64,000 nucleotides of DNA from an uncultured Leptospirales bacterium (lineage in GTDB: Bacteria; Spirochaetota; UBA4802; JAFGDQ01), in assembly GCA_964626055.1 (NCBI GenBank), contig CAZVDF010000003.1, positions 2,848 to 66,847 of the forward strand, read 5' to 3'. This document shows, piece after piece, positions 1-20,628 of the stretch. Position numbers and translations under genes: made by a program. Position 1 is the first letter of the stretch. Each line of letters begins with the position of its first letter. The notes below the pieces were generated by a model. That model made no database searches, was not told where the DNA came from, and saw only the letters and a program-made list of their open reading frames with translations.

Positions 1-281
1 AAAATATAATGATCGAGCAGAACTCAAAAAACGCCCTGCAGTCGTTTATCGATTACAAACCGGATGTTGTCTTTATTGATATCGTAATGCCGGGAATGAA
101 CGGAAAGCAGGTATTTGAAGAAATCAAAAAGATAGACAGTAAAATACCTCTTATTTTCATGAGCGGCAAGGTTGATGTAAAAAAAGATGAGCTTACTCAG
201 ATGGGTTCATACGATTTTATTAAGAAACCGTTCAGCCTTAACGATTTTTACAGGATACTCGACAGGATTTCACTACAGTAA
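1..281 (+). CDS. CheY-like response regulator receiver domain protein, 5' end truncated by the window edge
   Basis: The reading frame is open back to position 1. The translation contains VVFIDIVMPGMNG, the conserved region around the phospho-acceptor Asp, followed by the receiver-domain SGK and KP motifs. Only the C-terminal ~90 aa are present. Confidence 0.6.
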   Translation, partial: NIMIEQNSKNALQSFIDYKPDVVFIDIVMPGMNGKQVFEEIKKIDSKIPLIFMSGKVDVKKDELTQMGSYDFIKKPFSLNDFYRILDRISLQ

Positions 282-353
282 GTCCGGGCGCCGATGAATC
301 CGAATACTGCAATGCGCAATTGCTCTTACTGCCAGCTCCGTCCCCGGGGAATT

Positions 354-2996
354 TTACTCGCCTTCACCCCATTCTTCATTTATCTCGAATTCCTTGTTTG
401 TCAGCGCTGCTGATTTAACCGCTGATATTGTACGGTAAACTTTTTCAGGCTTTAATATTTTCCCCTTCACTTTTAAAATATGCTCGTTAATAGAAATGCC
501 GAAAAGTCGTTCGTTTTCCTGAAGATGAGGAAGAATAAGCTTCCAGTCACGGTCGGTAAATGGATGAATCTCACCGCCGTTTAATTGTTCCGGCACTATT
601 TTTTTAAACGGATCGCGGACGAAAATCGCCCCTCCCGAAGCCAGTGAAAACAGGTTTGAACCGGCGTACGGTACATCCTGAGGAATTACATTCCCATCCT
701 TATCAAAGGTAAGTCCGTTAAGTATTACAAATCCCCCTCCGTTGTACGGGTCGCCTGCCATGAACGATTCAGCAAGAAAATCGAGAGCGGTACCGTTTAT
801 AACGACCCTCGGTTTTCCGACCGCGTTGATCAGAGGACGCCCGGCAGCATTGCCGAGAACGTAGACTTCGCCGCCCTTTGCCCCGTACATGAAAGTCTGT
901 CCGATATCTCCGTGAATGACAAGCTTGCCCGACATCATTATCTGGCCGAGCTGATCCTGCGCATTTCCGTGCACGTGTATTTCAAGGCCGTCTATGCCCG
1001 ACGCCAGATAATCCCCGCTGGAACCGTACGAGTCGATGCGCACGCCGTCTGATTTAGGCCCGAAGCCGCATCCCAGAAAGCGCTGGCCTTTCTGGCCGTA
1101 GCACACAAACCGCTTCCACCCAAGGTTGTACGCCCCTGAAATTATTCCCGCAAAAGAATTGTCCCCTTCGGGGTCAAAGCCATTGGCATTTGCAATAAGG
1201 ATTTTTTCCTTCTTCCCAGGAGCGCGCAGCTTCTTGCGTGATTTAAAATCAATCCTGGAATAAATTCCCTTGGGTGCGCCGTTCATTACAGGAACAGCTT
1301 CAAAGATTGAGTCAAGCGCAGTTGAAATCATCTGAAGAACGGAGCGCCTGCTTTTCCGGCCTGTGGAATAGCGTCTGTCCAGCAGGAACGTCAGCATCTT
1401 TATTACCGGTTCTTTCAGGCTTTCTTTCCTGGAAAGACTTACGAGCAGATCGATATAGGCCGATACCTTCTCAAAATCCCATTTTATAATTGTCTGTTTT
1501 ACAGCCGCAAAATGTTTTTCAACTTTTCCCTCAGATAATAATTTCTCAGCATTGTCCCGGATTTTACCGTCAGCTTTTACAGGTGACGGTCTCTTTGAAA
1601 AATCGTAAGGCTTTTTATCTTCAGGCACATCGATACCCCGTCCGAACTTATCGGCGCAGCTGAGTTCCATTTTCCCGGGAGAAGATTCTTTTACCGTAAA
1701 AATAAACGATCCGCCGTCGGTATAGCTGCCTCCCCTCGCGTTCCAGTACCGGTCCGCGACTGTTCCGAAACGCGGATCTTCCTTTGCCAGGCTTTCAAGG
1801 GTCGCGTCTATTGCCTGCTTTTCGGAGCAGATAAGGCCAATTTCGACATCGCCCTTCTGCAATGCAAAAACCTGCGGCCTCAGCATAGCGGTATCCGTGA
1901 TGCCGATCAGCTGGTATTGCCTGTTTTTCACGTCATTGCGCGCAATGATGAAAAACCACGGGCCGTCAGGCGAACCGTGAATATGAGTGCTCTGGATCTG
2001 GCGGTAAATATGCTGTTTTTCCCTGGGCAGTTTGTCGAAGTCCATTTCGCTTGTCGGAGCAAAAGCTTCAATAATGTATTCAAGAGGATAGCCGTAAACC
2101 CTGCTTAAAAGATCGAAGACCTGCACCGAAACTTCGGTATCTGTGAGAAACAGAGGATACACATTACGCTGTTTAAGATATTCTGTTATGGAATAATAAT
2201 TCGCAAAGTCGCCGTTATGGACAAGCGCTTCATCAAGGCCGATGAACGGATGCGCTCCGCCGGGGTGCCACATACGCCCTTTAGTGGGGTACCTCTGATG
2301 TGCGATCCAGATATGAGCATCGAAATTTTCAAGCCTGTAATACTGTGCGACCTGTTCAGCATAACCCACGATCTTGAGAATCATCATATTTCTGCCGTGG
2401 GACAATACGAATGCCTTTTTATCGTTAAGCGAGCTGTAAAGCGCATAGTTCAGTTTAAAGGAATTCTGATATATGAATTCTTCTTCGAGCTTATCGGAAC
2501 CGAGCATCTCCAGTCCGCGCTCTTTTCTGAATGCCGAAAGGACTTCCGGCTTTACACGCACAAAATATCGTTTTACATCCGGAGGTTTAACTTCAAGCCC
2601 TTTGATATCCCTGTAATCATCAATAGTTTCCGCAAAAGCTTCGTGATCTATTCTGAAAAAAGGTTTAATATACCTGGATTCCATTTCACTTACAATCGAT
2701 TTATCGAGCAGCGCGATCTGCAGTAAAAAATCTTCGTCAAGCGTATCCCGGTCGACACCGAGCTTTTCAGGGATGAGGCCGACCGCAGCAAGCCCGCCTC
2801 CTTTCCCGTTCCCGCGGTTATGCATCTGTACCGAAGGTTCAAAGATGTGTTTACCGCTAACGGGAATATTGCATGCAAATCCCGTAACACCGCATCCGCC
2901 TTCTCCTGTTTCCAGCTCTTCCCTTGTGATTTTTTCCGCGTCTTTGCGCAGATGGTAACGGCTGTTTAATATCTCACGTGCAAAATTATTTCTCAT
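354..2996 (-). CDS. Glutamate-synthase-like protein: N-terminal class-II glutamine amidotransferase domain fused to a C-terminal GXGXG (GltS domain-3-like) beta-helix domain
   Basis: 880 aa ORF. The N-terminus has a Cys-containing Ntn-type amidotransferase region (GGCGVTGF, RGNGKGGGLAAV). The C-terminus has repeated G-X-G-X-G stretches (GCGFGP, HVHGNAQDQLGQ, VIHGDIGQTFMYGAKGGEVYVLGNAAGRPL) typical of the GltB C-terminal domain. No FMN (domain-2) region lies between them. Confidence 0.7.
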   Translation of the reverse strand: MRNNFAREILNSRYHLRKDAEKITREELETGEGGCGVTGFACNIPVSGKHIFEPSVQMHNRGNGKGGGLAAVGLIPEKLGVDRDTLDEDFLLQIALLDKSIVSEMESRYIKPFFRIDHEAFAETIDDYRDIKGLEVKPPDVKRYFVRVKPEVLSAFRKERGLEMLGSDKLEEEFIYQNSFKLNYALYSSLNDKKAFVLSHGRNMMILKIVGYAEQVAQYYRLENFDAHIWIAHQRYPTKGRMWHPGGAHPFIGLDEALVHNGDFANYYSITEYLKQRNVYPLFLTDTEVSVQVFDLLSRVYGYPLEYIIEAFAPTSEMDFDKLPREKQHIYRQIQSTHIHGSPDGPWFFIIARNDVKNRQYQLIGITDTAMLRPQVFALQKGDVEIGLICSEKQAIDATLESLAKEDPRFGTVADRYWNARGGSYTDGGSFIFTVKESSPGKMELSCADKFGRGIDVPEDKKPYDFSKRPSPVKADGKIRDNAEKLLSEGKVEKHFAAVKQTIIKWDFEKVSAYIDLLVSLSRKESLKEPVIKMLTFLLDRRYSTGRKSRRSVLQMISTALDSIFEAVPVMNGAPKGIYSRIDFKSRKKLRAPGKKEKILIANANGFDPEGDNSFAGIISGAYNLGWKRFVCYGQKGQRFLGCGFGPKSDGVRIDSYGSSGDYLASGIDGLEIHVHGNAQDQLGQIMMSGKLVIHGDIGQTFMYGAKGGEVYVLGNAAGRPLINAVGKPRVVINGTALDFLAESFMAGDPYNGGGFVILNGLTFDKDGNVIPQDVPYAGSNLFSLASGGAIFVRDPFKKIVPEQLNGGEIHPFTDRDWKLILPHLQENERLFGISINEHILKVKGKILKPEKVYRTISAVKSAALTNKEFEINEEWGEGE

Positions 2997-3047
2997 TCTA
3001 AAACCTCATTATAGCAGCGGGCAGATAATTTTTTTCCGCTCGTAATA

Positions 3048-4592
3048 TCATAATTCCAGTTCCCCGTCCAGTTTACGGTTTTGTATATAATCAATATGCG
3101 CGATAAGATCCATGCGCCCTGTCAGTTCAGTTACGCTTTTCAGCTCCAGACGTTTCAGTATGCGTATAAGCTCATTGCGCCACGCAGTATACATATTTGT
3201 TATGCGCTGTACAGCCCATTCCATGCTCATCAATCCGGTCAGTTCGTCATCGGTTGTAGCAATGCCGCGCGCGCAGCCCCTTCCCGATTCGCAGTGATGG
3301 CAGCGGATGCATTCAAGCGCGACAAGGTCGGCAGTGCCTATGCAGATCCCGTCTGCTCCCATTGCTATTGCTTTTGCCATGTCATAGGGAGAACGTATCC
3401 CGCCGCTTGCAATAACCGTTATTTTATTTCTTATGCCTTCAGCGACGAGAAATTTATGCACTTTTGGAATTGCATACTCTATCGGCATTGCGATATTCTT
3501 CTTTGCAATTTCAGGAGCCGCACCGGTACCGCCGTAGCTTCCGTCAAGATGGACAATATGCGCCCCTGCATAGTATGCCCCGACAGCGACCATATCGACA
3601 TCAGTCGGGGTTGATACCTTTATCGAAACAAGCGTTTTCGGATTAATTTCCTTGATCCAGTCGACGTGCTTTTTATGGTCTTCTACAGAGTACACGCTGT
3701 GAAACGGGAACGGAGAAAAAAGCGCGGTTCCCGGAACAGCCTGTCTCATTGCAGCAACCCGCGGAGTAACCTTGTCTCCAAGCAGATGGCCCCCAAGTCC
3801 GGGCTTTGCCCCCTGCGCGTATTTGAATTCCACAATGCGGACGCGTTTAATGGTTTCCTCTTTGACGCCAAAAAGCCCGGTAGCAACCTGTGTAATTATA
3901 TGATCATCATATGGTATCAGCTCTTCCGGATATCCTCCCTCACCTGTGCAGCAGAACGTGCCCAGCTTTGTTGCCGCGCGGACGCGCGACAGCATGGTAA
4001 CAATGCTTACGGAACCGAACGACATTCCTCCGAGATAGATCGGGATCGGGATGGTTACTCTGGGACGCGAATCCTCCGAATGGTTAAGGTCGATGGCAGT
4101 CGAAATTTCATCAGAAGTTAAATTTACGTCCTTAGAATCTTCTTTGATATCCTGATTGCTGCTTTTTGGGAATATGATGCCGATCTTATCGAATCCTCCG
4201 CCTGAATTACCGGTTCTGTAATTAAGATGTTCCGGCGCCTTGCCCGTGTCTGCCATATGCCAGGTTGCAGCCAGAAGCTCACCCGGCCAGCGCCTGTCGC
4301 CAAGCACCTCAAAAGAAGGATTTGATCTTAGTGAGATCGCTTTCTCGGGACATTTATCCACGCAATAAAAATCGTTTTTACCGCAATCGAAACCAATGCA
4401 AAGATGATCCGATATAGTCTTCGGTCTTTTCATCCCCGGTTTGTAAACGCCGTACGGGCAAAGATCAATACACTTTCCGCAGTTCGTACATGCCTTGCTT
4501 ATGCTGATGCGGTATTTTCCAAGAGCATTACGGAACCGGCTGGGTACTTCTTTAACTTCCGGGAAAACAAATGTGTCATTATTTTTTGCCAT
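3048..4592 (-). CDS. Glutamate synthase FMN-binding (domain-2-like) protein with N-terminal 2x[4Fe-4S] ferredoxin motifs
   Basis: CTNCGKCIDLCP and CxxxxCxxxC motifs at the N-terminus. The core carries GltS FMN-domain motifs (FKYAQGAKPGLGGHLLGDKV, IASGGIRSPYDMAKAIAMGADG). The C-terminus has the C-x-C-HHC-x-GRGC Fe-S region. It overlaps the upstream gene by 14 bp, suggesting translational coupling. Confidence 0.75.
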   Translation of the reverse strand: MAKNNDTFVFPEVKEVPSRFRNALGKYRISISKACTNCGKCIDLCPYGVYKPGMKRPKTISDHLCIGFDCGKNDFYCVDKCPEKAISLRSNPSFEVLGDRRWPGELLAATWHMADTGKAPEHLNYRTGNSGGGFDKIGIIFPKSSNQDIKEDSKDVNLTSDEISTAIDLNHSEDSRPRVTIPIPIYLGGMSFGSVSIVTMLSRVRAATKLGTFCCTGEGGYPEELIPYDDHIITQVATGLFGVKEETIKRVRIVEFKYAQGAKPGLGGHLLGDKVTPRVAAMRQAVPGTALFSPFPFHSVYSVEDHKKHVDWIKEINPKTLVSIKVSTPTDVDMVAVGAYYAGAHIVHLDGSYGGTGAAPEIAKKNIAMPIEYAIPKVHKFLVAEGIRNKITVIASGGIRSPYDMAKAIAMGADGICIGTADLVALECIRCHHCESGRGCARGIATTDDELTGLMSMEWAVQRITNMYTAWRNELIRILKRLELKSVTELTGRMDLIAHIDYIQNRKLDGELEL

Positions 4593-5979
4593 TAACCAAC
4601 CCCTTTATTCCCATTCCGGAAAATGTTTCTCTTTCAAGATCCTCAAAAAACATCGCCCTGCCCATTTCCCCGCGCATGCGGCGTATCTCGCGAATACCCA
4701 TTGCTCCCATTACTTCAAGAAGCTGATTATACCAGCCTGATATCAGGTTCCTGATGCGCGAAGCTCCCCAGGACGGGTCAACGCTTTCAAGATCGACAGG
4801 GCATGGTATCCCTTCCTTGCAACGCCTGCAAACCCTGCATTCCATTGCGACAAGCAGAGGTATGTCAATAGCCACGGCATCCGTTCCGCAGATGACAAGC
4901 TTTGCAACATGCTCTGCCATTGCTATGCCGCCCGAACCTATCAGGGTGATCTCATCTCTGAGGCCTTCTTCAATAAGATGCGAATGTACCTGCTTTATCC
5001 TGTCTTTGATAAAAAGCGGATCCGCATCCTTTCCTGATCCGAACTCATTTGCAGTAAGATGGATGACTTCCGCTCCTTCCTGCGCAAGGGCAACAGCGCG
5101 TACAGAGGCATCGCGGTTCAGTCTTAATCTGATAAATATTACAAGTTTTGGATTTATTTTCTTTAATCTGTGCTGTGCCGTCATTACATCGGCGCTGTCC
5201 GGCAGTTCAATTATCTTTAAACGTTTAACCAGTCCCGGATCCAGTTTGGAAATATCTTCATCTGCGAATAAAATCACTCTGGATAAATACTTATCTATTT
5301 CAGGGAACATGCCGGACTGATTTATTACTGCGAATGTTCCCATTTTTTTTGCTGCCTGAAGAATTGCAAGAGTGATCCCTTTCCCCGGAGGAGACCAGGG
5401 CAGAACGTCAAAAATAACAGGAAGAGGAATTTCAACAACCGGTGAAGGGGCGGTAAGAAGCTTTCCATTTGCATTGAATTCCAGGGACATCGGCTTTCTA
5501 CCGAGATCCACCGTAGTACTGATATATTCCCGACCGTGTATACCGTCCCGCGTAGGACGAACGATCTCGGACATGTCAGTCCACATTGAATCGAAACCCG
5601 GACCCGAGAAAGGCCCCCCATAACCTCCGCCCGAAACAGGCACTTTCCCGTTCTCCGCCTGGCTCCAGATATTCGCTATTACTTCAGGAGTCCAGTATTG
5701 ATCTCCAAGTGCTTTATATTGCGGATTAATTGATTTCTGGATAAGACGGTTAGGGCAGTTCTGAACGCACCTGAAACAATCCATGCAAACCGTGTCCAGT
5801 GAATCCAGCATTTGCCGGGCATCCAGATTTCGTTTCTCGTATACTTTATAAACACAGTCTTTCTTGACACAGCGCGCGCATTTAAGGCAGCCCTCCTCCC
5901 ATGCTATTACACCCGCTTTGGTAATTGCCTTGAATCTTGCCGGAGTAGGAGATGTCGGAATATGGTATTTTAAAGCCAT
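4579..5979 (-). CDS. Second, paralogous glutamate synthase FMN-domain-like protein with N-terminal ferredoxin motifs
   Basis: CLKCARCVKKDC and CMDCFRCVQNCP motifs are followed by a GltS FMN-domain-like core (LIGSGGIAMAEHVAKLVICGTDAVAIDIPLL, CRVCRRCKEGIPC). I moved the start from the ORF-track 6060 to the internal ATG at 5979 (MALKYHIP...) because a perfect AGGAGG sits 7 nt upstream and this removes a 71 bp overlap with metF. Confidence 0.7.
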   Translation of the reverse strand: MALKYHIPTSPTPARFKAITKAGVIAWEEGCLKCARCVKKDCVYKVYEKRNLDARQMLDSLDTVCMDCFRCVQNCPNRLIQKSINPQYKALGDQYWTPEVIANIWSQAENGKVPVSGGGYGGPFSGPGFDSMWTDMSEIVRPTRDGIHGREYISTTVDLGRKPMSLEFNANGKLLTAPSPVVEIPLPVIFDVLPWSPPGKGITLAILQAAKKMGTFAVINQSGMFPEIDKYLSRVILFADEDISKLDPGLVKRLKIIELPDSADVMTAQHRLKKINPKLVIFIRLRLNRDASVRAVALAQEGAEVIHLTANEFGSGKDADPLFIKDRIKQVHSHLIEEGLRDEITLIGSGGIAMAEHVAKLVICGTDAVAIDIPLLVAMECRVCRRCKEGIPCPVDLESVDPSWGASRIRNLISGWYNQLLEVMGAMGIREIRRMRGEMGRAMFFEDLERETFSGMGIKGLVNGKK

Positions 5980-5989
5980 CAATAGCCTC

Positions 5990-6913
5990 CTATCGGATCT
6001 CAGGTCTCGGGAATAGCCCCGCTTCCTTGACAATTTCCGGTACAGCTTCTTCCCATTCAATAGCCATAATGTGAACGCCGTTTACGCCATTAATTTTTTT
6101 TAACTCTTTTATTGTCTCAACAGCTATTTTTATTCCTTCTTTACGCTGATCTTCAGCAGGCACCGATTTCATTCTTTCTATGATCTCCGCAGGCACGTCC
6201 ATGCCTGCAACGTTCTTGCTCATATATTCAGCCATGCGCGCGGATTTGATAGGTGTAACTCCGCCCAGAATATATACTTTCTTATGAAGACCGCGCGCTC
6301 TCACTTCTTCCATCCATTCTTTAAAACGCCTGATATTATAAATGCACTGTGTCTGGATAAATTCCGCACCTGCAGCGATTTTCTTGGCAAGTCGCGCAGC
6401 CCTGTAGTTCAGGGGATCGGCAAACGGATTTTCCGCGGCTCCTATAAAAAGATCCGGCGCCTGTGTAAGCTTGTCCCCTCCGAGAATTATTCCTTTGTCT
6501 CTCATTGTCCTGACCATCTGAATCAGCTGTATGGAATCCACGTCAAATACTCCCTTTGCCTGCGGCTGGTTCCCGAAACTCTGGTGATCCCCGGTTAAAC
6601 ATAGAATATTATTAATACCGAGAGCCGAAGCGCCGAGAATATCGGACTGGAGCGCTATGCGGTTGCGGTCGCGTGTTACCATCTGAAGAACCGGATCCAC
6701 TTCTTCATTTTTAAGAAGCACGCATGAAGCCATGCTCGAAAGCCGGACAACGGCTGTCTGGTTGTCTGTCACATTTACGCTGTCGACGAACTCTTTCAGC
6801 AGTTTCCCTTTATTCTGAACGGCTTTGGGATCCGCACCCTTCGGCGGGCCGCATTCGGAGGTTACTGCAAAATGGCCTTTTTCCAGTATTTTCTTAAGCC
6901 GGCTTTCTGTCAT
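5990..6913 (-). CDS. metF: 5,10-methylenetetrahydrofolate reductase
   Basis: 307 aa with MTHFR family motifs: FAVTSECGPP (FEFFPP-like), CLTGD, GAAENPFADP, AGAEFIQTQCIYN and ILGGVTPI. The size and architecture match the small acetogen/anaerobe type MetF. Confidence 0.8.
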   Translation of the reverse strand: MTESRLKKILEKGHFAVTSECGPPKGADPKAVQNKGKLLKEFVDSVNVTDNQTAVVRLSSMASCVLLKNEEVDPVLQMVTRDRNRIALQSDILGASALGINNILCLTGDHQSFGNQPQAKGVFDVDSIQLIQMVRTMRDKGIILGGDKLTQAPDLFIGAAENPFADPLNYRAARLAKKIAAGAEFIQTQCIYNIRRFKEWMEEVRARGLHKKVYILGGVTPIKSARMAEYMSKNVAGMDVPAEIIERMKSVPAEDQRKEGIKIAVETIKELKKINGVNGVHIMAIEWEEAVPEIVKEAGLFPRPEIR

Positions 6914-7578
6914 ATTCTTTGATCCTCTCTTATGATTTTTCTAGGTCCTTTGCCGATCTGCTTCGACCAGTCCACAGGCTCATATATCTTTTCCAGATTA
7001 CCGAGCTCTCCCTTTTCTTCAAGCCGTGTGATAATCAGGTCCCATGCACAGGGCACATCCGGATCTACTTCGCATTTGCCGTCCTTTGATCCTCCGCATG
7101 GCCCGTTGAAAAGGCTCTTTGAACAGCGGGTCACCGGACAGACGGCGGCAAAACTCCCAAGCTTGCAGTCTCCGCATGCCCTGCAGTTTTCCATCCAAAG
7201 TCCCGATTCTTTTGTCTGCCCTATAAAAGTAGTATTCAGGGCAGGCAGAATAATCGCTTTTGTGTATACATCGGCAACCGCCTGGACACCCGCGCCGCAT
7301 CCAAGCGAAAGTACTGCGTCATAATTTTCAATAACGCCAGTAAGCTGGTCGATAAATTCATAAACGCATTGCCGGTCAATGGTCATTTCTTTGATTTCAA
7401 TTTCATGTTTTTTATTTTTCGCTTCAATCCTTAATGCCGAAGCCAGTAATCCGACTTCCTTCTCGCCTCCGGCCGCGCATTCCGCAACGCATGATCCGCA
7501 GCCCAGAATGAGAATTTTTTTAAATGGAGCGATCATCCCCCTGATCTCTTCCATGGGTTTTCTTTCGGCAGTAATCAT
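6910..7578 (-). CDS. metV: MetV-like Cys-rich protein (methylene-THF reductase C-terminal-domain family)
   Basis: 222 aa with the hallmark NGPCGG motif and multiple Cys clusters (CGSC..EC, CRACGDC, CPVTRC, CEVDPDVPC). It overlaps metF by 4 bp, so the two are translationally coupled. Confidence 0.7.
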   Translation of the reverse strand: MITAERKPMEEIRGMIAPFKKILILGCGSCVAECAAGGEKEVGLLASALRIEAKNKKHEIEIKEMTIDRQCVYEFIDQLTGVIENYDAVLSLGCGAGVQAVADVYTKAIILPALNTTFIGQTKESGLWMENCRACGDCKLGSFAAVCPVTRCSKSLFNGPCGGSKDGKCEVDPDVPCAWDLIITRLEEKGELGNLEKIYEPVDWSKQIGKGPRKIIREDQRI

Positions 7579-7670
7579 TACTTTACTCCTCGTAGTATCT
7601 TAATATTTTAAGCATGCAATAGCAGCAAATTATAACTGATTCAGATTTTCAGTATTCCTGATTAACTTTT

Positions 7671-8048
7671 TTATACGATCAATTCATCCACAATTTTATC
7701 GATCGTTGTTTCCGTCCCGGGCTTAAGATGGATAAGTTCCAGTGCTTCGCGTTTAATCCCTATTTCTTCCGCGAGCTTCTGCGTATAAAGCAGCCGTTTT
7801 TTTGCCCGTACATTGCCTTCCCTGTAACGGCAGGCTCCTTCAGGACATGTGAGGACATACACATGATCCGCCCCCGATTCCAGCGCTCTCATAAGATGCA
7901 GGGGTTCAATGCGTCCGCTGCAGGGGATCGGGAAAAACCTGATCCGGGAACCATATTCCTTTTCAATAGATCTCCGGTTTATATCCTGATCCTTATCGAT
8001 CTGCTGGCAGAAGAAAATCGCGATATTATTCGAATTTATTTTTTTCAT
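7671..8048 (-). CDS. MvhD/FlpD-like iron-sulfur protein (methyl-viologen-reducing hydrogenase delta-subunit family)
   Basis: 125 aa with CSGRIEP...GADHVYVLTCPEGACRYREGN, matching the FlpD/MvhD Cys pattern. It is the first gene of the metVF-glt-like operon. Confidence 0.65.
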   Translation of the reverse strand: MKKINSNNIAIFFCQQIDKDQDINRRSIEKEYGSRIRFFPIPCSGRIEPLHLMRALESGADHVYVLTCPEGACRYREGNVRAKKRLLYTQKLAEEIGIKREALELIHLKPGTETTIDKIVDELIV

Positions 8049-8100
8049 GATTTGCCGTTTATATATAAAATTGTAATTTAAAAAAATTTAGCTCTTTCCG

Positions 8101-8118
8101 GCATTTCTAGAGAAATGC
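8101..8118. promoter_or_regulatory. Inverted repeat GCATTTCT-AG-AGAAATGC about 50 bp upstream of the mvhD-like start; candidate operator or activator site
   Basis: Perfect 8 bp arms with a 2 nt spacer, read directly from the sequence. On the minus strand it sits just upstream of an A/T-rich -35/-10-like region (TTTAAATTACAATTTTATATATAA) that precedes the ATG at 8048. Confidence 0.3.
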
Positions 8119-8127
8119 CATTTCTCA

Positions 8128-8366
8128 CCCCCCTATCCCCCGGAGGGGGCACCATCGCTGAAACTTCAGTAAATTCTAAATAGTAATTCGGGATTATTAT
8201 TTCTGTATTTATCATCGGTTTTCTATATTATTTATAATCTATTATCACTTTTATCATTTATCAATCCTTTCTTATTGATAAATGCCAAGAGACTGTAAAT
8301 TTTAAAAAAGCATTTAAACTCTATGGCACTATCCAAGTCGGTACCCCCTCCGGGGGATAGGGGGCT
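8128..8366. mobile_element. MITE-like element: ~25 bp GC-rich terminal inverted repeats flanking ~190 bp of AT-rich DNA
   Basis: The left end is CCCCCCTATCCCCCGGAGGGGGCACC (8128-8153). The right end is GGTACCCCCTCCGGGGGATAGGGGGCT (8340-8366), its reverse complement with one mismatch. Each end is itself a hairpin. The same repeat family recurs at 19.6, 43.9, 44.05, 44.15 and 46.3-46.4 kb. Confidence 0.45.
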
Positions 8367-8891
8367 AAATGATTTCATAACTGTTACATTCTCTCTTTAT
8401 TTATTCACTTTTCCCAACATTCCGGAATGAACCAAAAATATAAAAAAGGACGCCATTCCAGACGTCCGTACCATGAAACAAAAGAAAGTAAATTTATTAA
8501 AATTTAAATAAACACGATACTTTAAAATATAGTACTTATCTCAGAAAAATCATAATTTCAAACGGTCCGCAACGACTAAAAGTATATTTTCAAACAGACA
8601 TCTTTTTTATAATAATAATAGCAAACTTTTTCAGAATCAACATATTTTCAACTAAATATAAAATGGAATTATTACAAATATGTTAATTTTTTATTATCAC
8701 ATTTAAATTTAGCAATAACTAAATATATGAGAATAATTTTTGTAAAAGCAATAATAGAAGTATCAATTTGACCAGATGTTAAAAATACTGCAAATGACAT
8801 GATAGCATAATATCATTATTGAAATATCCACTGGAATCAGCTCTTGACACTGGAAGATCAAATTAATAAATAGCGGTTCTATTCTATAATA

Positions 8892-8916
8892 AAACCCCCG
8901 CTTTTAGCGGGGGTTT
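8892..8916 (-). terminator. Rho-independent terminator of gdhA
   Basis: AAACCCCCGC-TTTTA-GCGGGGGTTT hairpin. On the minus strand it is followed by a T-rich tract (TTTTATTATAG), about 40 nt after the gdhA stop. Confidence 0.7.
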
Positions 8917-8957
8917 GGGATTATTTCTCAGACCACTTTTTAAAGTAACAAATATTT

Positions 8958-10313
8958 TTATACAATGCCTGCCGCAAGCATTGATTTAGCGACCTTGATA
9001 AATCCGGCAATATTGGCGCCCATTACGTAATCGCCTTTTTTACCGTATGTCTCGGAAGCGCTCAGACACGCTTTGTGAATATTCTTCATGATTTCCTTTA
9101 ATCTGCTATCGACCTCTTCTCTGCCCCATGACAGTCTCATGCTGTTCTGCGACATTTCAAGTCCGGAGGTAGCAACACCGCCGGCATTTGCCGCTTTTCC
9201 CGGGCCGTATAGAATATTATTTTCCTGATATACTTTTATCGCTTCCGGCGCCGAAGGCATATTGGCTCCTTCCGAAACGCATACGCATCCGCTCTTAACC
9301 AGGCTCTCCGCATTCTTGCCGCTTATCTCGTTCTGAGTCGCAGACGGGAAAGCGACATCGACTTTTATGCCGTGCTCTCTTAATACATCCCATACGCTGA
9401 GACCGCTGAAATATTTTACGCCGTACTTGTCCGCATATTCCTTAATTCTGCCGCGTCTAATATTCTTTAAATCCATTATGAAAGTCAGCTTTGCTGAATC
9501 TATCCCTTTCTCGTCAATTATTGTTCCGTCGGAATCGCTTAGCGAAATCACTTTGCCTCCCAGCTGGTTGACCTTCTCAACAGTATACTGGGCCACATTA
9601 CCCGATCCGCTCACTGCGCATACCTTTCCTTTAAGATCCTGCTTCCTTGTCGTGAGCATTTCGGCAGCGAAATACGTCGCGCCGTATCCGGTAGCTTCGG
9701 GCCTGATCAGGCTTCCGCCGTATTCAAGCGCTTTTCCGGTAAGAACGCCGGTGTGCTCATTAACGATCTTTTTATAATAACCGAACATGTATCCTATTTC
9801 GCGACCGCCGACCCCGATATCTCCTGCAGGTACGTCCGTATCGGGCCCGATATACCTGAACAGCTCGCGCATGAAAGATTGCGTGAATTTCATGACTTCC
9901 ATGTCGGATTTGCCTTTCGGATCAAAATCCGACCCGCCCTTGGCTCCGCCCATAGGAAGCGTCGTGAGTGAATTTTTAAATATCTGCTCAAATCCTAAGA
10001 ATTTAATGATACCGAGATTGACCGACGGATGGAATCTGAGTCCTCCTTTATATGGTCCGATTGCATTGTTAAATTGAACTCTGAAGCCTCTATTAACCTG
10101 GGCTTCTCCTTTATCGTCAACCCATGGCACGCGGAACATTATCACCCTGTCGGGTTCAACAATCCTGTCATAGATCCTGGCCTTAACAAATTCCGGATGT
10201 TTCGTTATGGTAGGCTCAAGCGTGTGCATTACTTCTTCTACAGCCTGGTGGAATTCCTTTTGCTCAGGATCGCGTTTTTTGACTTTATCAATTAGTTCAC
10301 TGATTAACGACAT
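8958..10313 (-). CDS. gdhA: NADP-specific glutamate dehydrogenase
   Basis: 451 aa. Carries the GDH catalytic-region signature LPMGGAKGGSDFDPKGKSD, the dinucleotide-binding GSGNVAQY motif and a typical hexameric GDH length. Confidence 0.9.
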   Translation of the reverse strand: MSLISELIDKVKKRDPEQKEFHQAVEEVMHTLEPTITKHPEFVKARIYDRIVEPDRVIMFRVPWVDDKGEAQVNRGFRVQFNNAIGPYKGGLRFHPSVNLGIIKFLGFEQIFKNSLTTLPMGGAKGGSDFDPKGKSDMEVMKFTQSFMRELFRYIGPDTDVPAGDIGVGGREIGYMFGYYKKIVNEHTGVLTGKALEYGGSLIRPEATGYGATYFAAEMLTTRKQDLKGKVCAVSGSGNVAQYTVEKVNQLGGKVISLSDSDGTIIDEKGIDSAKLTFIMDLKNIRRGRIKEYADKYGVKYFSGLSVWDVLREHGIKVDVAFPSATQNEISGKNAESLVKSGCVCVSEGANMPSAPEAIKVYQENNILYGPGKAANAGGVATSGLEMSQNSMRLSWGREEVDSRLKEIMKNIHKACLSASETYGKKGDYVMGANIAGFIKVAKSMLAAGIV

Positions 10314-10569
10314 AATTTTACCCTTCCCTTGATTAAAATAGATTAATTATTTTAAAGCTAGAATATCCATAAAAATTTATTTTTCATTCATGTCAACAAA
10401 TATAGGTTACGGCACAGACCTGTTTGTTACGAATATGTTAAATTTTAACATATTCGTAATATGTATTAATATTTGCTTTTCAATATGGAAAAAATAATGT
10501 AGCATAGCAAACATTAATCAATAAAATATTTATGAATCATTCCGGGAAGAGCTTCGGATAAAAAAAATT

Positions 10570-13158
10570 ATGGCATCAGCAATTACTGTCAGTACAGGCC
10601 TTGAAGGTCTTGATAATATATTAAATAATCTGCATCTCGGGGATAACGTCGTCTGGCAGGTTGACTCGATAGAGGATTATAAACATTTTTTAACTCCATA
10701 TATAAATAACGCGCTTCAAAACAATAGAAAAATAATTTATTTCAGGTTCGCCAACCACGAACCGCTCATAATAGACGACGACCGCATTCATGTTTTCAAT
10801 CTCAATGCATACAGCGGATTCGAATCCTTCTCTAAAAAAATATACACCATCATAACCGAGATGGGAGAAGAAGCGTTTTATGTTTTCGACTGCCTGTCTT
10901 CGCTGCTTTCCGCATGGGCTACGGATTTAATGATAGGCAACTTTTTCGTCATTACCTGCCCTTACCTGTATAAACTGAACACGCTCGCATATTTCGCCAT
11001 ATACCGCAACTTCCACAATTATAAAACGATCGCTCGGATCAGGGAGACCACACAGGTGCTCATTGACGTTTACAGCAATAATAATAATTTTTATGTGCAT
11101 CCTCTTAAAGTGGAGAACCGCTATTCGCCTACGATGTTTTTCCCGCATTTCAGCGAAGAAGATCGATTCATCCCGATTACGAACAGCAACGACGCGGTCA
11201 ATTTTATAAACTTTATACAGAAAAGAGATGCGGAAAGCACACTGCGAAAGCTCGATTTCTGGGACCAGCTTTTCCTTGACGCCGAGAACCTGTTAAAGAG
11301 TCGAGCGTCCCTGGATGATAAGAAAAAAATGGTGGAACAATTATGCAGGGTGATGATCGGACGCGATGAAAGGATTTTAAAACTCGCAAAGGACAATTTT
11401 ACGCTCGAATTCATGCTTTCGTTAAAAGACAGGCTGATAGGAACGGGATTCATCGGCGGAAAATCCGTGGGGCTTCTTATTTCCAGGATGATACTCCATA
11501 ATGATACCGGGCGCGACTGGAACAGCCTTCTTGAACCTCATGACTCTTATTACATCGGATCGGACGTCTTTTATTCATATATAGTCCAGAACGGCTGGTG
11601 GGAGCTCTTCATGAAACAAAAATCCCCCGATCATTACTTCAGCGCCGCGCGTGAACTGCAGGGAAAAATGCTTGAAGGAGATTTCCCCGACCAGGTAAAG
11701 GAGCAGCTACAGTATGTTATTGAATATTTCGGACAGTCGCCGATCATAATCCGCTCAAGCAGCCTCCTTGAAGACGCCTACGGCAACGCATTTGCGGGCA
11801 AATACGAAAGTTTTTTCTGTGTGAACCAGGGATCGCCTCCCAAACGCTACAAGGACTTCATGGAAACTGTACGCCGGATCTACGCGAGCACAATGAATGA
11901 AGACGCCCTTTCTTACAGGCTGCAGCGCGGCCTCGACCAGATGGACGAGCAGATGGCTCTTCTCGTAATGCGCGTCTCGGGCACTCATCATAAAAACTAT
12001 TTTTTCCCGGACATGGGCGGGGTGGGGCTTTCATACAATACTTACGTATGGAACACGGACATTAAACCGGAATCCGGTATGCTGCGCCTTGTCTACGGAC
12101 TGGGAACCCGGGCTGTAGGCCGCGTGGAGGGGGATTACCCGCGTATTGTAGCGCTCGATTCTCCTGAAACGCTTCCCCTTGCGAATCAGGACGATCTTAG
12201 AAGATTTTCCCAGCATAAAGTCGATATACTCGATATTACGGAAAATAATCTTAAGACCATATCGTTCAACGACCTTATAAAGGAACAGTTAAATTTAAAC
12301 CTTGATTACATTGCGGAAAAAGACCTCGATGCTTTTCAGAAGATGAAAGACCTGGGAATCGAAGGACCCGAGCCGTGGATCATTAATTACAGGCGACTGT
12401 TCAACGATACATCATTTACGGAAGACATGAAACAGGTGCTGAAAAGGATAGAACGTGTTTATAACTATCCGGTAGATATAGAATTCACCGTGAACTTTAC
12501 TTCTCAGAATCAATACAGAATTAATCTTCTCCAGTGCAGGCCGCACCAGATAGCGGGCATGGACGGCCATGTTAAAATTCCGGAAAACATACATCAGAAA
12601 AAAATAATCTTTAAATCAAAAAGCAATTTCCTCGGAGGCAGCGTTTCACGGCCCATAAAGCAGGTCATTTACATTGATCCGACCGGCTACAACGACCTTG
12701 TAATCGCGGAAAAACACAACATCGCGCGTCTAATAGGCAAGCTGAACAGGCAAATAACCGACTGCGAGAACCGGCAGACAATGCTTCTCGGGCCCGGACG
12801 TTGGGGAACAACAACGCCTTCCCTCGGAGTGCCGGTGCGTTTTGCGGAGATAAACAACGTGAGAGTCCTGGTCGAGATCGCGCGCATGAGCGAAGATATA
12901 TTGCCGGAGCTCTCTTTCGGGAGCCATTTCTTCCTTGACCTGGTGGAAACTAATATTTTTTACATCGCCCTGTTCCCGGAAAATAAAGATGTATTTTTTA
13001 ATATCGATTATCTGAACGGCTGTGAAAATCGGCTGGCGGACCTCATCCCGGAAGACAGGCATTACGAAAACATCGTCAGGGTCTGTGACTTCACCTCGTC
13101 ATCGGTGCATCTGATGTCCGATATTATATCCCAGAATGTGGTGTGCTTTAATAAATAA
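10570..13158 (+). CDS. PEP/pyruvate-binding (PPDK_N, ATP-grasp) domain protein with an N-terminal degenerate KaiC/RecA-like domain
   Basis: The central and C-terminal region matches PEP synthase/PPDK N-terminal domain motifs (GGKSVGLL, IIRSSSLLEDAYGNAFAGKYESF, VDIEFTV...LLQCRP). No phosphohistidine or PEP-utilising domains are present. The N-terminus STGLEGLDNILNNLHLGDNVVWQV resembles the KaiC/RadA family N-terminus but has no Walker A motif. Confidence 0.55.
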   Translation: MASAITVSTGLEGLDNILNNLHLGDNVVWQVDSIEDYKHFLTPYINNALQNNRKIIYFRFANHEPLIIDDDRIHVFNLNAYSGFESFSKKIYTIITEMGEEAFYVFDCLSSLLSAWATDLMIGNFFVITCPYLYKLNTLAYFAIYRNFHNYKTIARIRETTQVLIDVYSNNNNFYVHPLKVENRYSPTMFFPHFSEEDRFIPITNSNDAVNFINFIQKRDAESTLRKLDFWDQLFLDAENLLKSRASLDDKKKMVEQLCRVMIGRDERILKLAKDNFTLEFMLSLKDRLIGTGFIGGKSVGLLISRMILHNDTGRDWNSLLEPHDSYYIGSDVFYSYIVQNGWWELFMKQKSPDHYFSAARELQGKMLEGDFPDQVKEQLQYVIEYFGQSPIIIRSSSLLEDAYGNAFAGKYESFFCVNQGSPPKRYKDFMETVRRIYASTMNEDALSYRLQRGLDQMDEQMALLVMRVSGTHHKNYFFPDMGGVGLSYNTYVWNTDIKPESGMLRLVYGLGTRAVGRVEGDYPRIVALDSPETLPLANQDDLRRFSQHKVDILDITENNLKTISFNDLIKEQLNLNLDYIAEKDLDAFQKMKDLGIEGPEPWIINYRRLFNDTSFTEDMKQVLKRIERVYNYPVDIEFTVNFTSQNQYRINLLQCRPHQIAGMDGHVKIPENIHQKKIIFKSKSNFLGGSVSRPIKQVIYIDPTGYNDLVIAEKHNIARLIGKLNRQITDCENRQTMLLGPGRWGTTTPSLGVPVRFAEINNVRVLVEIARMSEDILPELSFGSHFFLDLVETNIFYIALFPENKDVFFNIDYLNGCENRLADLIPEDRHYENIVRVCDFTSSSVHLMSDIISQNVVCFNK

Positions 13159-13160
13159 TT

Positions 13161-13190
13161 CACCGGCTCCGGAGGCTTTTTTACTTAATA
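13161..13190. terminator. Weak hairpin plus T6 between the convergent PPDK_N-like gene and carB
   Basis: CACCGGCTCCGGAGGC is followed by TTTTTT. The stem is poor, so this is a low-confidence terminator. Confidence 0.3.
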
Positions 13191-16100
13191 TCCTTATGAT
13201 AAGCCTGTATCGATTTTACATCGCCCGCGCCATTTCTTTTTAAATATTCCCTGATGCCCTCGGCAGCCGCTTTTGCCGCTGCGGCGGTAGTGATGTACGG
13301 GATCTTGTATTTAATGGCAGCTTTCCTTATATATGAATCGTCGTACATGCTGCTTTTCCCTATGGGCGTATTTATTATAAGATCAATTTCTTTATTATGA
13401 ATGGCATCCACAATATTCGGCCTGCCTTCGTAAACCTTTTTGATATAAGTCGAAGAAATTTTATTCCCTTCAAAAAATTTATGCGTGCTTTCCGTAGCAA
13501 TTATTTTAAAGCCCAGCTTGCTTAATGTACGGGCGGCCTCAAGAATATCTTTTTTATCCCTGTCAGTGACCGTTATAAGCACGCTGCCCTTAAAAGGCAG
13601 CCTTTGCCCCGCAGCTTCCTGCGATTTAAAGAATGCCAGCCCGAACGAGTCCGCGATGCCGAGAACCTCTCCCGTGGATTTCATTTCAGGGCCAAGCGTA
13701 GGGTCGACTTCAGGGAACATATTGAACGGGAATACGGACTCTTTGATGCCGACATGCGGATATGTTTTATGTTTAAGCCTTAAATCTTTCAGCTTTTTGC
13801 CCATCATCAGCTGCGTTGCTATTCTTGCCATCTGCACTCCTGTAACCTTGGACACAAGCGGGACTGTGCGGCTTGCCCTCGGATTTGCTTCGAGAATGTA
13901 AACCACATCGTCAGCGATTGCATATTGAATATTCATGAGACCGGCAACCCTGAGTTCAATCGCAAGCTTTTTTGTGTATTCATTTATTGTATCAATATGT
14001 TTTTTTGAAAGAGTGCGCGGAGGGATCGCGCAGGCGCTGTCTCCCGAATGTATGCCCGCAAGCTCAATGTGCTCCATAACAGACGGTATAAACGCGTCAT
14101 CCCCGTCCACAACCGCGTCGGCCTCCGCTTCGATGGCGTCCTCCAGGAATTTGTCTATAAGAACCGGACGGCCCGGGGAAATATCTATAGCGGCGTTTAT
14201 ATAAGCGGTCAGCATTTCATCGTCATACACAATTTCCATGCCCCTTCCGCCGAGCACGTACGACGGTCTGACCATCAATGGATAACCGATTCTCTTTGCG
14301 GCCGCAAGCGCTTCTTCAAGATTCACCGCAGTATCGCTTTCGGGCTGGGGTATGCCGAGCTTATGAATTACGTTTTTAAAACGCTTCCTGTCTTCAGCCA
14401 GGTCGATGCTGTCTGTGGATGTGCCGAGTATACTCACTCCGGCCTCTTCGAGCTCCCTGGCAATATTAAGAGGCGTCTGCCCGCCGAACTGCACTATGAC
14501 ACCCGCCGGCTTCTCGTTTAAATAAATGCTGAGAACGTCTTCCACAGTAAGAGGCTCGAAATATAGCCTGTCTGATGTATCGTAATCAGTGGATACTGTT
14601 TCAGGATTGCAGTTGACCATTATAGATTCATATCCTTCGTCCCTTAAAGTAAAAGCTGCGTGAACGCATGTATAGTCGAATTCGATGCCCTGCCCTATCC
14701 TGTTGGGCCCTCCGCCGAGTATCATCACTTTTGGCTTGTCGCTCGGCCTCACTTCGTTTGGGGCATTATATGTTGAATAATAGTAGGCGGCATCCGCGCC
14801 GCTAACCGGCACGGCGCACCATGCTTCGGTTTTTCCGAGAGAAGTTCTTTTATCTCTGATTACTTTTTCGCTTATACCAAGGATCTGGGCCAGGTATCTG
14901 TCCGAAAATCCGTCTTCCTTTGCCTTTATTAACAGTCTGTCAGGGGGTACATTCCCTCTGTGCTTTAATATCTCTTCTTCGAGCTCCACAAGCTCTTTCA
15001 TCTGATTAATGAACCAGTGCTTGATTTTCGTTTTTTCGAACAATTCATCGACAGACGCGCCTTTCCTCAACGCTTCGTACATTATGAATTGTCTTTCGGA
15101 CGACGGCTCCTTTAGCAGCACCATCAGGTCGTTCAACGGAAGCCGGTTGAAATTTTTTGCGAAGCCGAGCCCGTAGCGCTTGTTCTCCAGCGACCTGATC
15201 GCTTTCTGGAAAGCTTCTTTGTACGTCTTGCCGATGCTCATAACCTCGCCCACAGCCTTCATCTGCGTGCCCAGCTTATCCTCGGCTTCCTTGAATTTCT
15301 CAAATGCCCAGCGCGCGAATTTAATGACTACATAGTCCCCGGACGGGGTGTATTTATCCAGAGTGCCTTCCCTGTAATACGGGATATCCTTAAGCGTGTA
15401 CCCTCCGGCAAGCTTTGCCGAAATGAGCGCAATCGGGAAACCGGTCGCTTTGGAAGCAAGCGCGGACGAGCGCGAAGTTCTGGGATTTATCTCGATGACC
15501 ACAACGCGCCCGTCAGCAGGATTGTGCGCGAACTGTATGTTGGTGCCGCCGATCACCTGGATGGCTTCAACGATTCTGTAAGAATACTCCTGCAGCTTCT
15601 TCTGCAGATCTTCGGAGATCGTCAGCATGGGAGCGGCGCAGTACGAATCGCCTGTATGCACTCCCATGGGATCGATATTCTCGATAAAGCAGACGGTTAT
15701 CATTTTATTATCGGCATCGCGGACGACCTCCAGCTCAAGTTCTTCCCAGCCGAGCACCGACTCTTCAATCAGCACCTGGCCTATAAGGCTGGCGGATATT
15801 CCCCTGCTAACGATTGCGTTCAGCTCTTCTTTATTGTACGCAATGCCCCCGCCGGTGCCTCCCATAGTATATGCTGGCCTTATGATGACCGGGAATCCAA
15901 GCTTCTCGGCAATAGCAAGCGCTTCTTCGTAGGAATACGCAAGTTCGCTTTTCGGCATAGGAATATTGAGCCCGTTCATGGTCTTTTTAAACTCGTTTCT
16001 GTCTTCGCCGCGTTCTATGGCATCCGCCTGAACGCCGATTATACGCACGCCGTATTTTTCAAGTATCCCGCGCTTCGAGAGCTCAGAGGATAAATTAAGC

Positions 16101-20622: not shown

Positions 20623-20628
20623 AGTAAG

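Follow-up and report, generated by a model that had tools for sequence, protein, structure and literature searches.

The 64,000-nucleotide stretch of DNA analysed here (the window) belongs to contig CAZVDF010000003.1 of an uncultured Leptospirales bacterium (assembly GCA_964626055.1), and its proteins are nearest to those of Spirochaetota metagenome-assembled genomes (MAGs). On its minus strand lie six closely spaced genes that place the two subunits of a methylenetetrahydrofolate reductase (MTHFR) of the MetVF type, together with an MvhD-like adaptor, beside three proteins, here called A, B and C, that resemble the parts of a split glutamate synthase (GOGAT, or GltS; Table 1); C matches MBN2402233.1 at 81%. 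A preliminary description of this DNA, made from its letters and open reading frames (ORFs), had given the gene order as mvhD-metV-metF-A-B-C, and this is borne out by the ORFs and by the Pfam and NCBIfam matches of their products: the MTHFR, PF12225, FlpD, Glu_synthase and GXGXG profiles were all matched, and MetF and MetV fall in the families expected. The overlaps, gaps and AGGAGG that it reported were likewise correct, with 92 bp between mvhD and metV, a 4-bp overlap of metV and metF, 10 bp (including the AGGAGG) between metF and A, and a 14-bp overlap of A and B; B and C are 51 bp apart. The most likely start of subunit A is the ATG at 5979, 7 nt past the AGGAGG, rather than a TTG at 6060 that belongs to an upstream extension of the ORF.

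Table 1. The operon and its associated features, with positions in the window
Feature	Position	Strand	Length, matches and remarks
mvhD-like gene, predicted [2Fe-2S] adaptor	8048..7671	minus	125 aa; FlpD PF02662 E=7e-24
metV, predicted Fe-S/Zn small subunit of MetVF-type methylene-THF reductase	7578..6910	minus	222 aa; PF12225 E=4e-36
metF, predicted flavin TIM-barrel MTHFR subunit	6913..5990	minus	307 aa; MTHFR PF02219 E=2e-42
A, predicted 2x[4Fe-4S] domain and degenerate GltS-type barrel	5979..4579	minus	466 aa; partial Glu_synthase E=1e-16, Fer4_10
B, dicluster ferredoxin domain and predicted FMN/2-oxoglutarate synthase barrel	4592..3048	minus	514 aa; Glu_synthase PF01645 E=3e-93
C, predicted class-II glutaminase, helical linker and GXGXG domain	2996..354	minus	880 aa; GXGXG E=4e-13, GATase_6 E=2.5e-5
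AGGAGG, ribosome-binding site of A	5986..5991	minus	overlaps the metF stop codon; read from the sequence
AT-rich 5' region before mvhD	8049..8891	minus	GC about 0.39; no ORF of 80 aa or more

The operon had also been described as encoding neither HdrABC nor GltD, and none was found: Pfam and NCBIfam scans of the window detected no HdrA, HdrB, HdrC, GltD/NfnB or NuoF-like genes beside it, and no protein with Pyr_redox_2 or Fer4_20 domains occurs in or beside it, or in a near-identical contig whose proteins are 93-96% identical to those of the window. On the 3' side, C is followed in the window by a convergent response-regulator gene, beyond which the related contig carries sensor kinases only. 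The NAD(P)H- and FAD-binding subunit of the GltD type that characterises the NADPH-dependent GltS class is absent from the operon.

Subunit C combines a 34-residue propeptide, a class-II (N-terminal nucleophile, Ntn) amidotransferase, a largely helical linker of about 200 residues and, as in GltS, a C-terminal GXGXG beta-helix (PF01493 at residues 648-806, 49.9 bits against a cut-off of 32.5), which agrees with the amidotransferase-GXGXG fusion of the preliminary description. No variation is seen at its C35, R235, N261-G262 and D286 in 39 homologues, and their conservation in 59 is at least 98%; they stand in blocks that are invariant or nearly so, namely E32-G-G-C35-G-V-T-G, HQRYPTKG (containing R235), VHNGDFANY (N261-G262) and TDTEV (D286), along with a C-terminal Ntn block, SPDGPW...DTAMLRP (D344-G-P...LRP374). 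From what is known of PurF, GlmS and GltS, we take these blocks to be the nucleophile, the ligands of the glutamine carboxylate and amino groups, the oxyanion hole and the C-terminal Ntn motif; the Cys, the Arg and Asp ligands and the Asn-Gly pair of a GltS-type glutaminase all have their counterparts in C. The leader ahead of Cys35 counts 34 residues and that of A. brasilense GltB 36 (a 1515-aa against a 1479-aa PDB chain), the mature A. brasilense chain beginning at Cys1. Because an hhalign comparison of the C family with the N-terminus of canonical GltB recovered a match of 35 columns only, around the DGP...LRP motif, the glutaminase appears to be a divergent class-II member and not a close relative of GATase_2. 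A Foldseek search with the AlphaFold2 (AF2) model of C returned weak GltS matches only (E>=1e-3), which assign no fold to the linker (450-600), and relatives of C are named 'glutamate synthase (domain 1/domain 3)' at NCBI and JGI.

The preliminary description had called A and B alike GltS domain-2-type flavin mononucleotide (FMN) proteins, each with an N-terminal ferredoxin module. Dicluster domains are indeed found by Pfam in both, and B fits the assignment throughout, whereas the barrel of A is degenerate. B scores 313 bits on PF01645 and aligns over 313 residues with the alpha subunit of A. brasilense GltS (1EA0/2VDC; E=5e-52). It keeps the AQGAKPGxGG motif and the Arg after it, GGTGA, SGGI..GAD..IGTA and the FMN phosphate loops, and it has Cys residues at the positions of the A. 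brasilense [3Fe-4S] ligands (C1102/C1108/C1113), so that a GltS-type FMN/2-oxoglutarate barrel and its adjacent Fe-S site are found together. Because a fourth Cys completes a CxxCxxCx5C motif, the cluster of B is likely to be [4Fe-4S] rather than [3Fe-4S].

In A, the Glu_synthase match spans only the second half of the model, Glu_syn_central is weak (28 bits) and Fer4_10 is present; the AQGAKPG substrate motif is missing and the barrel core is poorly conserved. The homologue alignment nevertheless retains two N-terminal cluster motifs and an invariant block at 130-155, FDSMWTDMSEIVRPTRDGIHGREYIST, and A shares with B the four-Cys motif, which reads MECRVCRRC..CP at 379-394 (i.e., CxxCxxCx5CP). 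The AF2 model leaves the N-terminal 170 residues unmodelled and resolves a barrel at 190-370 (pLDDT, the per-residue model confidence, 84-95), for which the best Foldseek fold matches are GltS chains (7mfm_G, 1ofd_A). We regard A as a probable paralogue of B that is catalytically degenerate, with cofactors predicted from its motifs. Because the central domain of GltS is a truncated barrel that lines the ammonia tunnel and is possibly a duplicate of the FMN barrel (PMC8097209), A would be its counterpart here, acting in addition as an Fe-S wire.

Of the three proteins encoded upstream, MvhD matches the NCBIfam models of the VhuD/HdrA2 C-terminus and conserves four Cys (C14, C43, C68 and C73) among its homologues, and MetV keeps its Cys-rich motifs in 53 homologues. 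Among the NCBIfam models, MetF best matches NF006396, in its MTHFR half (E=1.5e-73), and the TSE, LxGD and TQ motifs of MetF are all conserved in 65 homologues. The Asp of LxGD and the Gln of TQ are directly visible in the alignment with Thermus MTHFR, which begins at query residue 31; E20 of the TSE motif lies outside the aligned region, and we presume from the motif that it is the catalytic Glu. We likewise assume that the Glu, Asp and Gln correspond to E28, D120 and Q183 of the E. coli enzyme. FMN and two [4Fe-4S] clusters are present in purified MetVF enzymes, for which NAD(P)H is not a substrate (PMC8760232). Because MetF keeps these catalytic residues and its characterised relatives make no use of NAD(P)H, MetF appears to be a competent folate-dependent flavoprotein rather than an NADH site, and on the latter ground we rejected oxidation of NAD(P)H by MetF as the primary explanation.

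If these six genes had come together by accident in one genome, their arrangement would not be expected to recur. The preliminary description had suggested looking elsewhere for metV beside a GltS domain-2 protein, and we scanned a collection holding one genome per species of the Genome Taxonomy Database (GTDB) with protein A, finding relatives in at least 561 stretches; the best 80 served for the locus analyses (L numbers below). Gene orders were read by tblastn with the six window proteins, and among the 51 loci whose flanks are long enough on either side the order mvhD-metV-metF-A-B-C occurs in 48, mvhD-A-B-C in two (L012 and L045) and mvhD-A-B-C-metV-metF in one, an arrangement far beyond chance. 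The first gene of the cluster is mvhD in 48/51 loci, and it stays with A-B-C even where metVF is missing. Between loci, the pairwise identities of MetV and MetF rise and fall with those of A, B and C (Pearson 0.73-0.92), as would be expected of six genes that travel together.

The carriers belong mostly to Desulfobacterota in the old sense (Syntrophorhabdaceae, Desulfomonilaceae, Desulfobacteraceae, Desulfarculaceae, Desulfatiglandales and Syntrophus-like MAGs) and to Nitrospirota (Thermodesulfovibrionia, Dissulfurispiraceae), with single MAGs from Anaerolineales, Abyssobacteria, Acidobacteriota, Latescibacterota, Desantisbacteria and Leptospirales. Among 8,000 candidates scored from a collection of 5.8 billion proteins, more than 7,600 matched A and more than 7,600 matched C, and the only names that relatives of A and C bear are 'ferredoxin', 'glutamate synthase-related protein', 'glutamate synthase' and 'hypothetical'. 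The literature searched holds no description of a MetFV/MvhD/GltS-like operon, and sequence searches of the PDB gave no structure of the six-protein complex or of a MetVF-type enzyme. The label 'MetF-ABC' in a paper on D. autotrophicum was considered and set aside, being a figure abbreviation without explanation and no description of the operon. The view that the combination is undescribed can stand for the literature and structures searched, but its rarity cannot: the cluster is common and is annotated piecemeal as glutamate synthase or ferredoxin. The architecture is real and widespread, and apparently undescribed.

A second line of evidence comes from proteins in which the same modules are joined covalently. 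A comparison of C with 1.84 billion representative proteins yielded 296 matches at E<=1e-30, among them giants of 2,200-3,150 residues. In four of these (P0308, P0266, P0300 and P0374), one chain contains, by Pfam and BLAST, a GlcD-like FAD-linked dehydrogenase, an Fe-S (Fer4) module, a B-like barrel and a C-like part, the last with GXGXG and in some cases a detectable GATase_6. An A-like segment was verified among the giants in P0308 only, where residues 17-453 of A align with 640-1089 at 28% identity. P0345, from a Brocadiia MAG, joins B-like and C-like parts, no FAD module being detected. At L081 (4877-12313), an operon encodes a protein joining GlcD-like, Fe-S and A modules, then B, then C; a gene for a Y1 (IS200/IS605-type) transposase interrupts this operon. 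In a Latescibacterota MAG whose cluster is without metVF (L059, 1746-5018), A and B form a single 1,090-aa ORF.

The GlcD-like fusions thus resemble the window operon in having the B- and C-type modules in the same order (with the A-like part in P0308 and L081) and a dehydrogenase with Fe-S clusters upstream. They differ from it in that this dehydrogenase is a homologue of FAD-linked 2-hydroxy-acid dehydrogenases and is covalently fused, and in that the A-like part is without the CxxCxxCx5C motif. The fusion of A, B and C in this order behind a GlcD-like module indicates that they act together as one enzyme with a swappable upstream flavoprotein, and that MvhD, MetV and MetF occupy a slot for redox modules in which a different flavoprotein dehydrogenase can also stand. 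The GlcD-like fusions themselves possibly represent a sister enzyme, a GOGAT driven by 2-hydroxy acids.

The genomic surroundings of the cluster were examined by clustering the flanking ORFs of the 80 loci and scanning representatives against Pfam. Lineage-specific families aside, all families present in at least five loci are nitrogen or glutamine genes: glnA and PII (16 loci each), carA and carB (12 and 9), a 270-aa class-I amidotransferase directly upstream of mvhD (12), amt (9), glnD and gatCAB (8 each), hisH and hisF (5 and 7), a purF/asnB-like amidotransferase (7) and glnE (5). NtrC-like activators occur in four loci and GAF-ANTAR regulators in three. At least one of these families is present in 51 of the 68 loci with at least four flanking ORFs, and the window operon itself lies beside gdhA, with carB and guaA near, in keeping with the nitrogen-assimilation context proposed earlier. 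At L045, which has mvhD-A-B-C only, guaA, pyrG and nadE lie upstream and hisF downstream. In 12/67 loci a sigma-54-type site lies no more than 400 nt ahead of mvhD, compared with 1.3% of control windows in coding DNA; upstream of mvhD in the window no site fits the sigma-54 consensus, and the window-wide count is under chance. No Wood-Ljungdahl genes are conserved beside the cluster in the 80 loci or present in the 64 kb of the window, and Pfam and NCBIfam detected no Hdr flavoprotein or CCG-domain subunits, whether in the operon itself, in its flanks or among the neighbour families that are conserved.

We give an even chance to the reading that all six genes encode a single soluble iron-sulfur flavoenzyme, a GltD-less glutamate synthase coupled to the methyl-/methylene-tetrahydrofolate (THF) couple. 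Its parts carry different weight. That A-B-C is a GOGAT, with an activity predicted from its conserved sites, is in our view well supported; that MvhD and MetVF are physically part of the A-B-C enzyme is reasonably likely; and that methyl-THF is the physiological electron donor is a tentative proposal drawn from analogy. Because the GltS parts are complete with invariant sites, the neighbours are nitrogen genes and A-B-C fusions exist, the glutamate-synthase reading, one of two offered in the preliminary description, with MvhD/MetFV as redox partner, is favoured.

In such an enzyme, C would hydrolyse glutamine at its processed N-terminal Cys35, with the GXGXG helix as scaffold, and the ammonia would pass through a tunnel to B, which would bind FMN and 2-oxoglutarate and reduce 2-iminoglutarate to glutamate. 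Subunit A would take the role of the GltS 'central domain' and contribute three extra [4Fe-4S] clusters as a wire, which MvhD ([2Fe-2S]) and MetV ([4Fe-4S]) would link to the flavin of MetF; MetF would stand in the place of GltD in bacterial GOGAT, which is also that of the GlcD-like dehydrogenase in the sister enzymes. Electrons would then run from the MetF flavin through the MetV clusters, the MvhD [2Fe-2S] cluster and the clusters of A and B to the FMN of B and on to 2-iminoglutarate. The net reaction would be methyl-THF + 2-oxoglutarate + glutamine -> methylene-THF + 2 glutamate, with nitrogen assimilation paid for by electrons at -200 mV and not by NAD(P)H or ferredoxin.

We infer the cofactor assignments and the direction of electron flow, and the direction is the weakest step. 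The substrates that GlcD-type dehydrogenases normally oxidise have potentials of about -190 mV or higher, and the couple of 2-oxoglutarate and ammonium with glutamate lies at roughly -0.14 V, with glutamine hydrolysis adding drive (both values are approximate). Because modules of the GlcD type oxidise their substrates and the GOGAT half-reaction is the more positive, methyl-THF is by analogy the favoured donor. With the methylene-/methyl-THF couple at -200 mV (PMC8760232), glutamate synthesis driven by methyl-THF is thermodynamically downhill. The full formulation, a methyl-THF:2-oxoglutarate/glutamine oxidoreductase that draws on this couple, with 2-hydroxy acids as donors through the GlcD-like module of the sister enzymes, is possible, but we hold it to be somewhat doubtful.

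Several observations count against the six-gene glutamate synthase. The case for the association of MvhD and MetVF with A-B-C consists solely of gene order, co-variation and the analogy with the GlcD fusions. Because mvhD-A-B-C clusters without metVF exist (L012 and L045 with full flanks, L071, L079 and L059 with incomplete ones; Desulfobulbia and Latescibacterota are examples of such carriers), MetVF is not obligatory for the core. In L034 (15952-17505) and L070 (6313-7875), a divergent metVF lies behind C; because its identity to the metVF of other clusters is no more than 44-51%, where the B and C of the same loci reach 60-67%, independent recruitment of MetVF is suggested. In the MetVF enzymes characterised so far, reduced ferredoxin or dyes supply the electrons and methylene-THF is reduced (PMC8760232), and the flow in the opposite direction is our inference. 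In addition, the 64 kb of the window hold no Wood-Ljungdahl genes, and without a catabolic pool of methyl-THF this donor would bring no gain. With respect to the subunits themselves, the GATase_6 match of C (24.7 bits) falls just under the Pfam cut-off of 27, and the AF2 models have a mean pLDDT of only 64 for C, with the glutaminase half poorly modelled, and 55 for A, in which the barrel alone is usable.

The alternatives differ in what they make of MetVF, and the first two below are serious competitors. If the operon encoded a ferredoxin-driven dual reductase, i.e., a GOGAT and an MTHFR in one, a single Fe-S wire would have two outlets, glutamate at B and methyl-THF at MetF, and reduced ferredoxin or some other low-potential donor would dock on the ferredoxin-like domains of A and B or on MvhD. 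This would accord with the reduction of methylene-THF by purified MetVF with reduced ferredoxin and not NAD(P)H (PMC8760232), with dicluster domains in A and B of the kind assumed to take up external electrons in split archaeal-type GltS, and with carriers that have no Wood-Ljungdahl pathway, since no methyl-THF pool is needed. We consider it unlikely, however, because it leaves an MTHFR between mvhD and A in a nitrogen-regulated operon unexplained, because the same slot in the sister enzymes holds a GlcD-like dehydrogenase, from a family that normally oxidises its substrates, and because the wire would have to share its electrons between two competing outlets of high potential. The genes could instead encode two enzymes that share nothing but a transcript: A-B-C as a split GOGAT dependent on ferredoxin, and a MetVF of type II (perhaps with MvhD) that serves C1 and methionine metabolism. 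MetVF functions as a stand-alone heterodimer in several acetogens (PMC8760232), and the clusters in which metVF is missing (L012, L045, L071 and L079) or lies behind C (L034/L070) would be readily accommodated. We hold separate enzymes to be distinctly unlikely, however: in 48/51 loci, and across phyla, metVF separates mvhD from A and is coupled translationally by the 4-bp overlap and 10-bp gap; MetV and MetF co-vary with A, B and C; the GlcD-like module is covalently attached at the equivalent position; and MvhD is known solely as an adaptor between modules.

The other reading of the preliminary description, an MTHFR that uses GltS-like modules, amounts to a fifth type of MTHFR, in which the GltS-like proteins replace HdrABC as an electron-transfer or bifurcating scaffold and no glutamate is made. 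The MTHFR types recognised number four, none with a GltS partner (PMC8760232). Such a type would have MetF, MetV and MvhD in common with the type-IV complex of Moorella, whose second acceptor is still unknown, and the degenerate barrel of A might hold a special flavin. We nevertheless judge this reading improbable: the glutaminase and 2-oxoglutarate/FMN sites are intact and invariant in about 60 homologues, which would not be expected of a scaffold, and the neighbours are nitrogen rather than Wood-Ljungdahl genes. The electron bifurcation raised with it was speculation, since neither an NAD(P)H site nor any known bifurcating flavoprotein (HdrA, NfnB/GltD-like, EtfAB, HydB/NuoF-like) was found by Pfam and NCBIfam in the window; in the absence of HdrA, HdrB, HdrC and these flavoproteins, we also rejected a bifurcating MTHFR of the HdrABC type as the primary explanation. 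Most improbable of all is amine transfer tied to C1-folate metabolism in the manner of N-methylglutamate synthase (MgsABC) in place of a reductive glutamate synthase. In methylotrophs, MgsABC is a homologue of GltS in split form, and its pathway has methylene-THF as the end point; automatic pipelines often put the Mgs name on split GltS genes. However, neither gmaS nor mgdABCD-like genes are found among the conserved neighbours, nor any sarcosine-oxidase-like family among those of at least four loci; the neighbouring GlnA is by score (1e-135) a standard glutamine synthetase and sits with PII, amt, glnD and glnE; and seven or more Fe-S clusters together with MvhD suggest net redox chemistry, something the Mgs reaction can do without.

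The GltD-less glutamate synthase that we favour has relatives on both sides. With split ('archaeal-type') and bacterial NADPH-dependent GOGAT (GltB/GltD; A. brasilense 1EA0/6S6S, Synechocystis 1OFD) it shares the Ntn glutaminase with a predicted processed N-terminal Cys, the GXGXG beta-helix, the motifs of the FMN/2-oxoglutarate barrel and the adjacent Fe-S cluster, and the nitrogen-gene surroundings; A would be a truncated-barrel partner like the central domain. Unlike these, the operon encodes MvhD, MetV and MetF instead of GltD, unites glutaminase and beta-helix in one 880-aa protein with a new linker, has the barrel in duplicate (B catalytic, A degenerate) with a dicluster ferredoxin domain on each, and shows the four-Cys CxxCxxCx5C in place of the three-Cys [3Fe-4S] site. 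In common with the type-IV MTHFR of Moorella thermoacetica and Sporomusa (MetFV-HdrABC-MvhD), MetF, MetV and MvhD, the last as presumed connector, are encoded beside a large Fe-S flavoprotein partner; HdrA (with its NADH site and bifurcating FAD) and HdrBC (with CCG domains) are replaced here by the GltS-family A-B-C, and the context is nitrogen assimilation instead of the Wood-Ljungdahl pathway. Because HdrA, HdrB and HdrC are lacking, the operon is not a member of the type-IV family. The F420-dependent glutamate synthases of methanogens and anaerobic methanotrophic archaea (FGltS), which are linked to FrhB, offer the precedent of a GltS core with an exchanged electron-input module, FrhB for GltD (PMC9012536); their donor module is an F420H2 dehydrogenase, where here it would be MetVF with MvhD.

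Glutamate synthase is a central point of entry of nitrogen into biomass, and the electron donors described for it are, to our knowledge, NAD(P)H and ferredoxin, joined by F420 in some archaea. If our proposal is correct, a GOGAT wired to folate C1 units would be a new donor class and a direct link between C1 redox state and nitrogen assimilation, would allow energy-limited anaerobes to assimilate nitrogen without a cost in NAD(P)H or ferredoxin, and would provide an exergonic outlet for the thermodynamically awkward oxidation of methyl-THF. It would also define a GOGAT family with plug-in donor modules of middle potential joined through MvhD and A, give MvhD a role outside Hdr complexes, and place MetVF, whose partner in the cell is still debated for many anaerobes, in a fifth context. 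The carriers include many sulfate reducers, syntrophs and Nitrospirota, from groups that dominate anoxic sediments and digesters. Because reconstructions from MAGs now divide the operon into 'MTHFR' and 'glutamate synthase', Wood-Ljungdahl and nitrogen metabolism may be mis-assigned in them; the gene combination would surprise specialists in nitrogen assimilation and in anaerobic C1 energetics alike.

Other glutamate synthase genes occur near the cluster. In Thermodesulfovibrionia, a second split GOGAT lies directly downstream of C (L013 15691-20834, L006 14299-19497 and, with the same layout, L029), consisting of a 369-aa protein without a Pfam match, a 553-aa ferredoxin-Glu_synthase protein and a 777-aa protein that joins GXGXG to a GltD-like Fer4_20/Pyr_redox_2 part; GltD-type genes near the clusters are confined to these separate, adjacent GOGATs. 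In a Leptospirales MAG (L001), a canonical gltB follows 1.4 kb downstream. These second GOGATs look like isoenzyme sets. A further degenerate Glu_synthase-like paralogue of 520-550 aa, with a partial PF01645 match, adjoins a helix-turn-helix-cupin regulator, often in a divergent position upstream of the cluster, in six loci (L001 4112-5752, L013 2673-6051, L012 7628-9223, L031, L032 and L061). The class-I amidotransferase upstream of mvhD is a PF00117 protein of 265-312 aa that forms the string amt-PII-glnA-GATase1-mvhD in L004, L009, L011, L024 and eight more loci; it is absent from the window.

In the window, gdhA, upstream of the operon, ends in a strong hairpin terminator (8892-8916), from which about 840 bp of AT-rich DNA free of ORFs extend to mvhD. 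Because of this terminator and the ORF-free 5' region, the operon's own promoter must lie in 8049..8891, in which sigma-70-like matches are weak only. An Rfam scan of window positions 1-17000 gave sub-threshold leader-peptide noise at the gdhA terminator and no riboswitch in the 5' region. Eighty bp upstream of mvhD lies an inverted repeat with 53-nt arms (8129-8181 and 8312-8364) that are 74% complementary, enclose 130 nt and have G+C-rich palindromic ends, CCCCCTATCCCCCGGAGGGGG; it looks like an insertion of a miniature inverted-repeat transposable element (MITE) in the promoter region of the operon. In the middle of the spacer between gdhA and mvhD, on the operon strand, a hairpin, GGACGTC...GGCGTCC followed by TTTTTT (8448-8467, minus), resembles a terminator; it matches no Rfam family and could mark the end of a small transcript or an attenuator.

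Elsewhere in the window, flagellar hook genes are present, and a 364-aa ORF without a Pfam match lies between a pair of paralogous genes for DUF2279 lipoproteins (314 and 326 aa; 19678-22821, minus). Between gdhA and carB, a gene at 10570-13158 (plus strand) encodes an 862-aa protein whose sole domain is PPDK_N, of the phosphoenolpyruvate (PEP)-utilising, ATP-binding kind (residues 294-676), and which scores well under the cut-offs of all PEP synthase models; the same neighbour is found in the 93-96% related contig.

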